Assembly (NCBI GenBank): GCA_017475405.1 | Contig: JAFVFN010000008.1 | Coordinates: forward strand, 1,254-65,253 | DNA length: 64,000 nt | Reading direction: 5' to 3' | From: Elusimicrobiaceae bacterium | GTDB taxonomy: Bacteria > Elusimicrobiota > Elusimicrobia > Elusimicrobiales > Elusimicrobiaceae | Part shown: piece by piece, positions 13,551 through 46,953 of the stretch | How positions within the stretch are numbered: the first letter of the stretch is position 1 | How the letters are laid out: each line of letters starts with the position of its first letter | Program-made: the position numbers and the translations under genes | Notes under the pieces: generated by a model | The model's input: only the letters and a program-made list of their open reading frames with translations | The model's database searches: none | What the model was told of the DNA's origin: nothing

Positions 13551-13738
13551 AATTTAATCTATTTTTGAACTGTATGAAGAATACAGGATACTTCGCAACA
13601 GAAGTAATCAGAAGGGTCAAAAATAGCCGATTAGGCACACAAGAGCGACGGCTTGCGTGTGTCAAGCGTTTCCTGCGTATGCGGGGAACCACGGCTGTTA
13701 TATTAGACTTCCCTTCTGATGCCTAATATGGCAGCCGT
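13551..13738 (+). ncRNA. Pilin leader structured RNA, copy 1
   Basis: P1 AATCTATTTTTGA/TCAAAAATAGccGATT; pseudoknot ATCAGAAGGG (13607-16) with CCCTTCTGAT (13711-20); 16-bp terminal stem ACGGCTGTTATATTAG/CTAATATGGCAGCCGT. Confidence 0.85.
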
Positions 13739-13786
13739 CATTATTTATATATCGTTCAAGAATAGATTTAAAAATAGGAGATATGT

Positions 13787-19728: not shown

Positions 19729-19762
19729 AATTATCTCTCCCTATTAGGTATTCTATAGAGAC

Positions 19763-19791
19763 AGAATATCAAAAAAAAAAAAACGCGTCAA
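19763..19791 (-). promoter_or_regulatory. Pilin promoter with poly(T)13 spacer tract (putative phase-variable)
   Basis: Minus strand TTGACG-CG(T13)GA-TATTCT, 17-bp spacer; A13 on + strand at 19771-19783. Confidence 0.7.
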
Positions 19792-19886
19792 GCGAAATTT
19801 TTGGTTCCACAGTTCAACCTGCTAGTGCAACTTTAGTTAGTTTTTATTGTTTGCCTTTTTTAACGATTTCTTGTTACAATGGATTT

Positions 19887-21011
19887 ATGAAGTCCCTGAA
19901 AGCCATTTTCCTTCTCTTGTTGATGACGATCTTCTTGCCGTTACATGCCGGTGGAGGTATTCGTTTTTTACAAAAGGCAGGTAGAGCACTGTCTCCCCAA
20001 GAAGCACGCTTACAACGGGCTATTTCTTATCATATGGACCGTGCCGTACTAAATGCTTCGCATACAGCACAACTAGCAAACACAAACCGGTTGGCTTATT
20101 TTCAATCGTCTCGTACTATTCCTTTTCAACGTATGGCCACAGTCAGTGCCCCAGACCGATATTTGCCGGAGCCCGTAGACCCTTTGTTTATTTTGCGTAA
20201 TGACAAAATGGCCTTTCAATGGTTTGAAACTATAGAAAAAGATCTACATTTTTTGCAAGACCAAAAAGACGCTATTTATAAGACGATAAACTGGCAACGC
20301 GTGTCCCCAGAACAAATGGATTACGCCGCTCTTATTCCAGCAACTGTTCGCAAAATCTTTGTAGGCGAGGAACACAACCAACCTGCCATTTATAAAGCAT
20401 TTGAAAATATGGTATTTCAGTACCAAAAAAAATTTCCGGAACGAAAAATTATTGTTTTAACCGAATTTGTATCAGACCGATTATTACCTTGGCAAAAACC
20501 GGGAAAACCTGTAGGACGTTTGGAGATGCCACTTCGACGTAATTCAAATAAATTTACTTTTTTTAATAAATTTATCCGTGCAGGTATTCAGGTAATCGGT
20601 TTAGAAAATGTAGGATATATTAAAGACCATGAATCTTTGATTACTCCCTCGGAAAGCCAATACGAATCGGTTTACGGTATGCAGGAGCGTAATGCCCACT
20701 GGCGACATATTATCAGCTATGTGGCAGATAATAATCCGGACGCCGTACTTTTTATTTATGCAGGGAATATGCATACACATTACCGGGCACCTTTTACCTT
20801 GGCAAACTCTTCCCCGCAAAACTTTGTAATCCAACTGGAATCTGCTTCTTTGGGAGCAGATATGCCTTTTGGATTTATTATGAAACAAGAACCTTTTACA
20901 CAGGCTTATGCCAATAAATTAACCGTACTAAGTTGGGGCGAAAAAGATCCTGTTTTTCGCACCCGCAGTGGTTTTGATGCTTGTATTATCTTCCCTACGG
21001 AGAACCCATGA
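19887..21011 (+). CDS. Exported hypothetical protein, possibly ChaN/EreA/Tiki-superfamily fold
   Basis: Signal peptide; VGEEH, TEF, GLEN, ERNAHW and YAGNMH pattern resembles the superfamily motifs; fold call is tentative. Confidence 0.55.
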   Translation: MKSLKAIFLLLLMTIFLPLHAGGGIRFLQKAGRALSPQEARLQRAISYHMDRAVLNASHTAQLANTNRLAYFQSSRTIPFQRMATVSAPDRYLPEPVDPLFILRNDKMAFQWFETIEKDLHFLQDQKDAIYKTINWQRVSPEQMDYAALIPATVRKIFVGEEHNQPAIYKAFENMVFQYQKKFPERKIIVLTEFVSDRLLPWQKPGKPVGRLEMPLRRNSNKFTFFNKFIRAGIQVIGLENVGYIKDHESLITPSESQYESVYGMQERNAHWRHIISYVADNNPDAVLFIYAGNMHTHYRAPFTLANSSPQNFVIQLESASLGADMPFGFIMKQEPFTQAYANKLTVLSWGEKDPVFRTRSGFDACIIFPTENP

Positions 21012-22008: not shown

Positions 22009-22210
22009 AATTTAATCTGTTTTTGGAAGCGTTTTAGAAACGCTGAGCTGTTATAAACTAACAGCACCAAGTAAGTCCAAAAACAGCTGTTTTAGGTACT
22101 ATACCCATAAGCTGATCCCTTGTTGGTATAGTGCCGAGTGTTTGCCACATGGTGGCAAGCCACGGCTGTTATTGATGGGTTACTTACTTGGACTCGGATA
22201 TAGCAGCCGT
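22009..22210 (+). ncRNA. Pilin leader structured RNA, copy 2
   Basis: P1 CTGTTTTTGG/CCAAAAACAG; pseudoknot CCAAGTAAGT (22067-76) with ACTTACTTGG (22182-91); terminal ACGGCTGTTAT/ATAGCAGCCGT; TGTTATAAT at 21981. Confidence 0.85.
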
Positions 22211-22251
22211 TTTTATTACGTATTTTCCAAAAACAAATTTTAGGAGAATAT

Positions 22252-38320: not shown

Positions 38321-38524
38321 AATTTAATCTGTTTTTGAAACCGTCTAAGAAGCGGGTTGCTTTAGCAAAACTAAAGTTTCAGTGAGTTCAAAAGCAGTCG
38401 ATTAGGTACAACGCCAACGGAATTGCAAACCTGTTACGTTGTGCTAAATGTTTATCGCATTCGTGTGATAAACTACGGCTGTTATATATTGGGTAACTCA
38501 CTGAGCTCAAAAAATAGCAGCCGT
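38321..38524 (+). ncRNA. Pilin leader structured RNA, copy 4
   Basis: TGTTATAAT at 38296; P1 CTGTTTTTGA/TCAAAAGCAG; pseudoknot TCAGTGAGTT (38379-88) with AACTCACTGA (38495-504); terminal ACGGCTGTTAT/ATAGCAGCCGT. Confidence 0.85.
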
Positions 38525-38573
38525 TTTATTGGGTTTCATAACAGATCGCTGACTACGATTAAGGAGATAAGTT

Positions 38574-46731: not shown

Positions 46732-46916
46732 AATTTAATCTATTTTTGAGCCGCATATAGATGCGGGTTTGCTTAATAAGCATCCATCGAAGTCAAAAAT
46801 AGCCGATTAGGTACAATGGGACCGTACATCCTGTTGTACCAAATGCTTATCGTTTATCACGATAAGCTACGGCTGTTGTATTGAGCTTCTTCGATGGGGA
46901 TTAATACAGCAGCCGT
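46732..46916 (+). ncRNA. Pilin leader structured RNA, copy 5
   Basis: TGTTATAAT at 46705; P1 AATCTATTTTTGA/TCAAAAATAGccGATT; pseudoknot CCATCGAAG (46784-92) with CTTCGATGG (46889-97); terminal ACGGCTGTTGTATT/AATACAGCAGCCGT. Confidence 0.85.
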
Positions 46917-46953
46917 TTTCTGTGAATGTGTCTAAAAATAGATAGGAGAAATT

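Follow-up and report, generated by a model that had tools for sequence, protein, structure and literature searches.

One promoter, with a poly-T run as its spacer, precedes about 100 pilin-like genes scattered over the genome as so many copies, is conserved in two genera and appears to be pinned in length by selection. We consider it probable that the tract described here is the spacer of this stereotyped sigma-70-type promoter, that T12 is its selected optimum, and that the T13 tract of the window (the whole 64-kb stretch of DNA analyzed) deviates from that optimum and does not represent an ON state. Phase variation through homopolymers in promoter spacers is textbook knowledge for a few pathogens; here such spacers are found in a commensal gut lineage with a tiny genome. 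A literature search returned no publication on this promoter class or on the control of the Elusimicrobium pilin expansion.

Results

A T13 tract forms the spacer of a promoter upstream of a pilin-like gene

The minus strand reads TTGACG-CG-T13-GA-TATTCT from 19791 to 19763, in agreement with the -35/-10 assignment and the 17-bp spacer of the original prediction (Table 1). TG-A stands immediately 5' of the -10 hexamer, which makes it an extended -10 element; where the window copy has TGA-TATTCT, relatives show TGATATAAT, TGGTACAAT, TGATAAATT and TGATACACT. The site has the features of a sigma-70-type extended -10 promoter, namely a TTGACA-like -35, TGn plus TAnnnT, and a spacer within 16-18 bp. 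It also shares one feature with contingency promoters: the -35/-10 spacer is occupied by a homopolymer (T13 or T12), and a change in its length would move the two elements apart or together.

Table 1. Features of the promoter and the downstream gene (window coordinates)
Feature	Position	Strand	Remarks
Promoter letters as read on the + strand	19763..19791	+	AGAATA 19763-19768; TC 19769-19770; A13 19771-19783; CG 19784-19785; CGTCAA 19786-19791
A-rich UP-like stretch AAAAATTTCGC	19792..19802	-	abuts the -35 on its upstream side
-35 hexamer TTGACG	19786..19791	-	5/6 match to TTGACA
CG dinucleotide between -35 and tract	19784..19785	-	YG in every copy
T13 tract (A13 on the + strand)	19771..19783	-	+1 variant of the canonical T12
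GA and -10 hexamer TATTCT	19763..19770	-	with the last T of the tract, TGA-TATTCT, extended -10
Predicted transcription start, A 7 nt past the -10	19756	-	inferred from the cassette alignment
Short hairpin; UCUCUAUAG right after the -10 pairs with the Shine-Dalgarno region CUAAUAGGGAGA	19738..19761	-	RNAfold
Shine-Dalgarno sequence AGGGAGAG	19735..19742	-	6 nt 5' of the ATG
Prepilin-type (type IV pilin/pseudopilin-like) gene, 183 aa	19177..19728 (start 19728)	-	ORF, Pfam record

As had been noted before, T13 is the longest homopolymer in the 64-kb window, and it is the sole one longer than 8 nt. A/T runs of 5, 6, 7 and 8 nt number 355, 117, 39 and 8, none has a length of 9-12 nt, and one is 13 nt long. 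Because the counts decay this steeply, with zero at 9-12, the run is not a chance occurrence; extrapolation of the decay gives about 0.02 runs of 13 nt or more in the window. The bare -35/-10 pattern is not significant alone (2 sites in the window against 2.5 expected from shuffles), and the promoter owes its significance to the 104 genomic occurrences of the complete cassette rather than to its hexamer match. Two other readings of the region were ruled out. The T-run is not a terminator tail, since the preceding stem has just 3 bp and a terminator scan gave no match, and TATAAG in the leader is not an alternative -10, since it has neither a -35 nor a TG motif and is missing from relatives.

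The pilin gene starts 34 nt downstream of the promoter and is convergent with obg. Pfam PF07963 (N_methyl) is on record for a product identical to the 183-aa protein, whose N-terminus carries the methylation/cleavage motif followed by a hydrophobic helix with Glu5, as in prepilin-type proteins. The genome also encodes a prepilin peptidase (PF01478, Peptidase_A24, matches at C17:9774-10115) and assembly ATPases of the T2SS/T4P type (PF00437, T2SSE, four matches). Obg similarity places the genome with uncultured Elusimicrobium from the ruminant gut. In RUG10714, the nearest GTDB species by Obg (96% identity), no pilin adjoins obg, so that the window promoter has no cross-species orthologue.

The divergent neighbor (window 19851-19889, + strand) encodes a secreted protein of 374 aa whose ATG is at 19887, and lies upstream of a trypsin-like protease gene. 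Before it stand TTGCCT, an 18-bp spacer and TACAAT (19875-19880), the last preceded by TGT. The ATG is located exactly 7 nt past the -10 and is not preceded by a Shine-Dalgarno sequence, which makes the transcript a candidate leaderless mRNA.

The promoter cassette recurs throughout the genome

In the genome (1.68 Mb, 30 contigs, 44% GC), A/T runs of 8, 9, 10, 11, 12 and 13 nt occur 115, 6, 1, 2, 99 and 5 times, respectively. Nearly all of the 12- and 13-mers fall in a single cassette type with the layout (A-rich)-cGC-TTGACG-CG-T12-GA-TATTCT-CTCTTTATAA...TATAAGGAGAG-ATG. The genome holds 104 of these cassettes, at least 103 of which lead to pilin-like genes: 93 are positioned 30-45 nt 5' of such a gene, and 10 of the 11 others reach one via longer leaders. 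The -35 belongs to the TTGACx or TTGCAT class in all 104 (TTGACG, TTGACA, TTGCAT, TTGACT), and in the consensus of 95 cassettes AAatttcGC precedes TTGAC, with conservation ending further upstream. Tract lengths are T12 in about 93 cassettes, T13 in 5, T11 in 1, T10 in 2 and T9 in 1; counting T12-type tracts, 93 of 98 are exactly T12 (5.1% off-length). The canonical T12 yields a 16-bp spacer, and its last T together with the G starts the extended -10. The tract had been taken for a private device of this one paralogue, but about 104 promoters of the genome share the design.

We identified 226 pilin-like N-termini in the genome (median length 169 aa), dispersed singly among housekeeping genes. 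About 97 of the 226 genes have a T-tract promoter within 300 nt, while most of the remaining ones carry a leader of about 180 nt with a terminator-like hairpin at its end. The T-tract class is about half of the pilin family, not one odd paralogue, and the contrast between a DNA-tract class and an RNA-leader class among the pilins is real. The long leader, with the conserved parts ..AAAAAUAGCCGAUUAGGUACA..CCACGGCUGUUAU..AUAGCAGCCGUUUU, is present on at least 81 pilin genes of the genome, probably on about 120, and precedes the four other intact pilins of the window at 13587-13786, 22052-22251, 38374-38573 and 46754-46953 (+). An Rfam scan of the window returned tRNAs only, and neither leader type matches a known RNA family. 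Pilin-like N-termini are abundant in the genus as well, with 31 to more than 150 in each of 20 genomes out of 20.

Several further elements were observed in the course of this survey. A repeat of 8-9 copies, which is among the cases with longer leaders, breaks the assembly at contig ends (C3:34849, C8:73594, C10:353, C11:32175, C21:290, C23:86869, C26:74337 and C29:242); it consists of a T12 promoter with the -10 TAGCTT, a leader of about 195 nt and a distinct pilin subfamily (MKKKGFTLSELLVVVVIIGVLSAVVLPKF), and the leader contains two poly-G runs that vary between copies (G6/G7; and GGGAGGGG / G6 / G7). The promoter at C10:8457 (-) is the sole T12-spacer promoter driving a non-pilin gene; the usual anti-Shine-Dalgarno (anti-SD) leader is present, and the product is a secreted protein of 295 aa with a signal-peptide-like N-terminus (MIFHTMTQRVVLGLLGTVMYLGGLGLPASA). 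Long G/C runs (G11 at C1:29843, G10 at C1:36589, C1:67378 and C25:27639, G9 at C7:11620 and C9 at C29:61263) are far above the background of a 44%-GC genome and are candidates for classical slipped-strand phase variation.

Tract length is conserved among diverged paralogues and relatives

To 62 of the cassettes belongs an identical 19-residue N-terminal peptide. In pairwise comparison, identity is only 52% at its synonymous third positions and 42% over the 300 nt that follow, yet the tract has remained exactly T12. The 52% synonymous identity rules out that this uniformity stems from recent duplication or from gene conversion. Where the bases next to the tract differ, the run length compensates. 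With three non-T bases after the -35, T11 keeps the 16 bp (TTGACA-TCG-T11 in G032 and TTGTAA-TCG-T11 at L030); with one non-T base, T13 does (TTGCTT-A-T13, L086); and where the first T is substituted the run is T11 (CGC-T11, C19:25175), again with 16 bp. From the maintenance of T12 despite synonymous divergence and from this compensation to 16 bp, we conclude that tract length is under purifying selection.

In a relaxed pattern search, 35 of the 41 Elusimicrobium genomes contained the design, the highest copy number being about 114, and the reversed-pattern control gave 0 in 38 of the 41 genus genomes. The modal total spacer length is identical across the genus genomes, and congeners have 10-35% off-length paralogues (hand count among the matches listed). 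G123, a genome of the same genus, has weak -35s (TTGTTT, TTGTAA), and its runs range from T9 to T15 with spacers of 13-19 bp, in contrast to the tight T12 mode of genomes with TTGACx. This scatter, seen in one genome, suggests that the length constraint arises from the positioning of a functional -35. It may reflect either relaxed constraint or active tract variation in that species. A survey of 121 genomes of the phylum confined the design to the family Elusimicrobiaceae (two genera); elsewhere there are 0-1 matches, which is chance level. When GTDB contigs were scanned for exact copies of the T12 cassette, the genome of the window alone gave matches. The TATTCT cassette is species-specific, and relatives carry other -10 hexamers.

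Tract length varies at few loci among related assemblies

Orthologous loci were found in public assemblies by exact-protein look-up with wide flanks and were defined by 260 downstream nt of about 100% identity. The comparison assemblies cover 21 samples, mostly from one ruminant metagenome project, and provide consensus calls, which are blind to within-population mixtures. All 8 other assemblies with an identical pilin have T12 at the window locus, in otherwise identical sequence. The four other T13 loci of this genome are T12 elsewhere in 5/5, 7/8, 4/4 and 3/3 calls, so that all five pooled are T12 in 27 of 28 calls from other assemblies. Loci that are T12 in this genome (G000) are T12 in 60 of 64 calls elsewhere, the rest being two T13, one T11 and one T8. 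Outside this genome, T12-type calls total 92, of which 87 are T12 and 5.4% are off-length (three T13, one T11, one T8). The T9 and T10 loci are fixed at the same length (8/8 each), and the lone T11 call agrees. The length difference between related strains by which the switch was to be checked was seen at this locus, with T13 here against T12 in eight assemblies, but overall the tracts are nearly invariant (about 5% off-length), which comes near to the invariance across populations that had been named as refuting a switch.

Differences between T12 and T13 are the only recurrent 1-bp indels over 273 kb aligned at 99.96% identity, and the T-tracts are the most indel-prone sites of the genome. 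Since other 1-bp indels are absent across the 273 kb, this assembly is not generally error-prone at homopolymers, and a general homopolymer error was ruled out. The most variable tract, C4:49150 (+), is T12 in seven samples, T13 in two (ERZ28654714 and SRR12529323) and T8 in one (ERZ28018951); this locus and its orthologues L170-L179 precede an identical 176-aa pilin. At C25:53378 a T13 allele is present in two assemblies, and C20:39095 has one T11. The clustering of off-length calls by locus indicates that at least some of the length variation is real. Missing mismatch repair was ruled out as a source of tract instability, as MutS and MutL are intact in the genome. The T13 of the window itself is an ordinary +1 variant, which may be a true variant of the strain, or a miscall.

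These comparisons do not support the claim that T13 is the ON state. T12 with its 16-bp spacer is the mode in the genome, at the locus and across two genera, and it is T12 that is maintained against synonymous divergence.

A short leader can fold into an anti-SD hairpin

For the 34 nt past the -10 of the window copy, RNAfold gives -6.2 kcal/mol, against -3.3 kcal/mol for shuffles. The same hairpin is predicted in 84 of 93 cassettes (mean -6.4 against -2.0 for shuffles), and the pairing keeps a fixed register, with offsets 2-8 in 88-99% of copies and offsets 1-6 (anti-SD) in 77-99%. Covariation is sparse: pair 5 is U-A in 73 copies and C-G in 5. The gene had been described as leader-free. It does lack the leader of about 180 nt found on the four other intact pilins, but the predicted and conserved anti-SD hairpin means that it is not leader-free. 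Offset 7 past the -10, where transcription canonically begins, holds an A in 89 of 93 cassettes, and in 81 of the 93 this position is the earliest purine. If transcription starts there, as predicted, the geometry implies that the gene's own mRNA would be made without the anti-SD segment, and the hairpin would be limited to transcripts that read through from adjacent operons.

Discussion

We propose that Elusimicrobiaceae use a poly-T-spacer promoter almost exclusively for pilin-like genes, laid out as an A-rich UP-like stretch, a TTGACx -35, YG, T12, G-n and a TAnnnT -10. Two sigma-70-family genes were found in the genome, and the primary sigma factor would recognize this promoter. Poly(dA:dT) DNA is stiff, with a helical repeat close to 10 bp. 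The stiff, over-twisted run would set the distance and the angle between the hexamers, and upstream of the -10 it would also provide T-rich sequence and the TG. With T-tract making up three-quarters of its 16 bp, the spacer would be twisted in total by an amount intermediate between 16 and 17 bp of mixed-sequence DNA. The additional T of the window may have arisen by replication slippage in this lineage or by an assembly miscall. Slippage in the T-tracts is real, yet would seem to resemble mutational noise around a selected optimum.

In E. coli libraries, spacers of 15-19 bp were all highly active, with an optimum at 17-18 bp (PMC8695583). Given this tolerance, one added T should modulate the promoter and not switch the gene on or off. 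As T12 is the selected optimum of the lineage, T13 is more likely to be mildly altered than ON, the size and sign of the effect being predicted only; as the E. coli optimum includes 17 bp, T13 as a stronger state is possible on sequence alone. Spacer T-tracts can be stimulatory structural elements (PMC5758882). It counts against a spacing role alone that it leaves the need for an uninterrupted, mutable homopolymer unexplained.

The T13 call could be a technical artefact, a 12-nt homopolymer miscalled as 13 by short-read sequencing or assembly, which we regard as possible if somewhat unlikely. Short-read data are known to be error-prone at long A/T homopolymers, the five T13 loci of this genome are contradicted by 27 of the 28 calls from other assemblies, two of the five lie less than 300 bp from contig ends, and the off-length rates here and elsewhere are similar, as uniform error predicts; the window locus, however, is mid-contig, shorter homopolymers show no indel differences in the 273 kb, and off-length calls cluster in a manner unlike random error (3 of 10 at C4:49150, including a 4-nt deletion, and T13 twice at C25:53378). 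If the length differences are instead biological, the approximately 100 T-runs could be true contingency loci, at which slipped-strand mispairing dims or switches each pilin-like gene, with T13 as one state and a combinatorial repertoire of surface or secreted pilins in populations as the outcome. We think this unlikely and do not class the tracts as a demonstrated phase-variation switch. Tract lengths exactly T12 in 95% of calls over 21 samples are not the dispersed lengths that genes parked OFF would give, mismatch repair is intact, the T9 and T10 variants are fixed without fluctuation, and a change from 16 to 17 bp is no on/off step in E. coli; consensus assemblies are, in addition, blind to heterogeneity within populations. 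What speaks for contingency loci is that a homopolymer lies within the promoter spacer throughout a surface-protein family, that paralogues of congeners range from T9 to T15, and that the T-tracts are the sole indel-variable sites in 273 kb, with near-identical strains differing at the window locus, at four others, at C4:49150 and at C20:39095, and with the T13 allele of C25:53378 in two assemblies. The genome also has few sigma factors, matching the argument made for H. pylori (PMC4081817).

A different reason for a conserved length would be that T12 is the recognition site of a dedicated trans-acting factor that co-regulates the pilin regulon, the length being kept for binding; a second sigma factor, a poly(dA:dT)-binding nucleoid protein or an activator would be candidates. 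The class serves pilin-like genes almost without exception (at least 103 of 104 promoters), is lineage-restricted together with the pilin expansion and is conserved at each position of the run, and a second sigma-70-family gene is present. Nevertheless, we hold this to be very improbable, as the hexamers and TGn fit a housekeeping extended -10 promoter that needs no extra factor, and as the run becomes T11 where three non-T bases follow the -35 and T13 where one does, a compensation that points to spacing; a candidate factor was not identified. That the T-tract serves as a gene-by-gene mutational dimmer (rheostat) is possible but doubtful; the 5% of T12 tracts that are off-length, the three alleles at C4:49150 and the off-length paralogues of congeners, with the T9 to T15 scatter of G123, would fit such a role as well. 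More speculative, and in our view decidedly unlikely, is a combination of two coupled devices, in which a slippable T12 spacer, held by selection at its optimum, would act as a heritable and reversible volume knob for each gene and the anti-SD hairpin would silence the translation of read-through from nearby housekeeping operons. The T13 of the window would then be a dimmed or altered state in a regulon of about 100 genes, the output of each being set by its own promoter, a reading to which we likewise give little credence. If true, no bacterium described so far would have a mutationally tunable repertoire of surface proteins of nearly this size.

The cassettes constitute a natural experiment on spacer sequence and length, with 100 near-replicates per genome and natural variants from T8 to T15, and they bear on which property of such tracts is selected, mutability or DNA structure. 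The motif is precise enough to annotate transcription units of the pilin family in metagenome-assembled genomes of Elusimicrobiaceae. One-base differences at T-tracts should be read as ON or OFF only with read-level data.

Among known systems, the vlp genes of Mycoplasma hyorhinis are among the closest in mechanism: every paralogue has a poly-A tract in its promoter (Citti & Wise 1995, as summarized in PMC10502178). In both cases a homopolymer is located between the promoter elements of each member of a surface family, and the genes form single-gene units, which makes gene-by-gene slippage possible. The vlp tracts vary in length by paralogue and clone, and their switching is frequent and demonstrated, whereas about 95% of the approximately 100 Elusimicrobium tracts have one length and strain variation is about 5%; the Elusimicrobium family is also about 10 times larger and belongs to a diderm, mismatch-repair-proficient organism. 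In Bordetella pertussis, the promoters of fim2, fim3 and fimX contain a C-stretch, and porA and opc of Neisseria meningitidis have poly-G or poly-C in or near the spacer. There, too, a homopolymer sets the distance between promoter elements, and its length modulates transcription of fimbrial or outer-membrane genes. Those tracts are made of G/C, are highly polymorphic and concern a handful of genes, in contrast to the present T-tract, which runs into an extended -10 and whose length is conserved between species.

The T-tract of H. pylori sabA functions as a rheostat, its length altering local DNA structure, RNA polymerase binding and graded output, and such a mechanism has been put forward for bacteria that have few regulators (Aberg et al. 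2014, PMC4081817). Both T-tracts adjoin the core promoter. The sabA tract, however, lies beside the -35, shifts the alignment with UP-like elements and is highly variable in vivo, while the Elusimicrobium tract itself constitutes the -35/-10 spacer and seldom varies. At ECF sigma promoters of Bacillus subtilis, spacer T-runs are stimulatory, probably via DNA trajectory (Gaballa et al. 2018, PMC5758882). The T-run of Elusimicrobium would likewise be a structural promoter element, although the B. subtilis runs comprise 4-5 nt and are -35-proximal, whereas 12 nt nearly fill the spacer of a housekeeping-type extended -10 promoter in Elusimicrobium. Spacer sensing by the sigma-70 of E. coli is reportedly the subject of a related study.

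The leader has its own counterpart in IS10/Tn10, for which Davis, Simons and Kleckner are said to have described fold-back inhibition of transposase translation in 1985. There, a segment complementary to the ribosome-binding site lies upstream of the element's own start, which confines the hairpin block to read-through from outside. The Elusimicrobium leader, which precedes a pilin and not a transposase gene, would have a like arrangement, argued from geometry with a predicted start. The Elusimicrobium tracts match contingency loci in location and in their multigene setting, while their polymorphism between strains is low.
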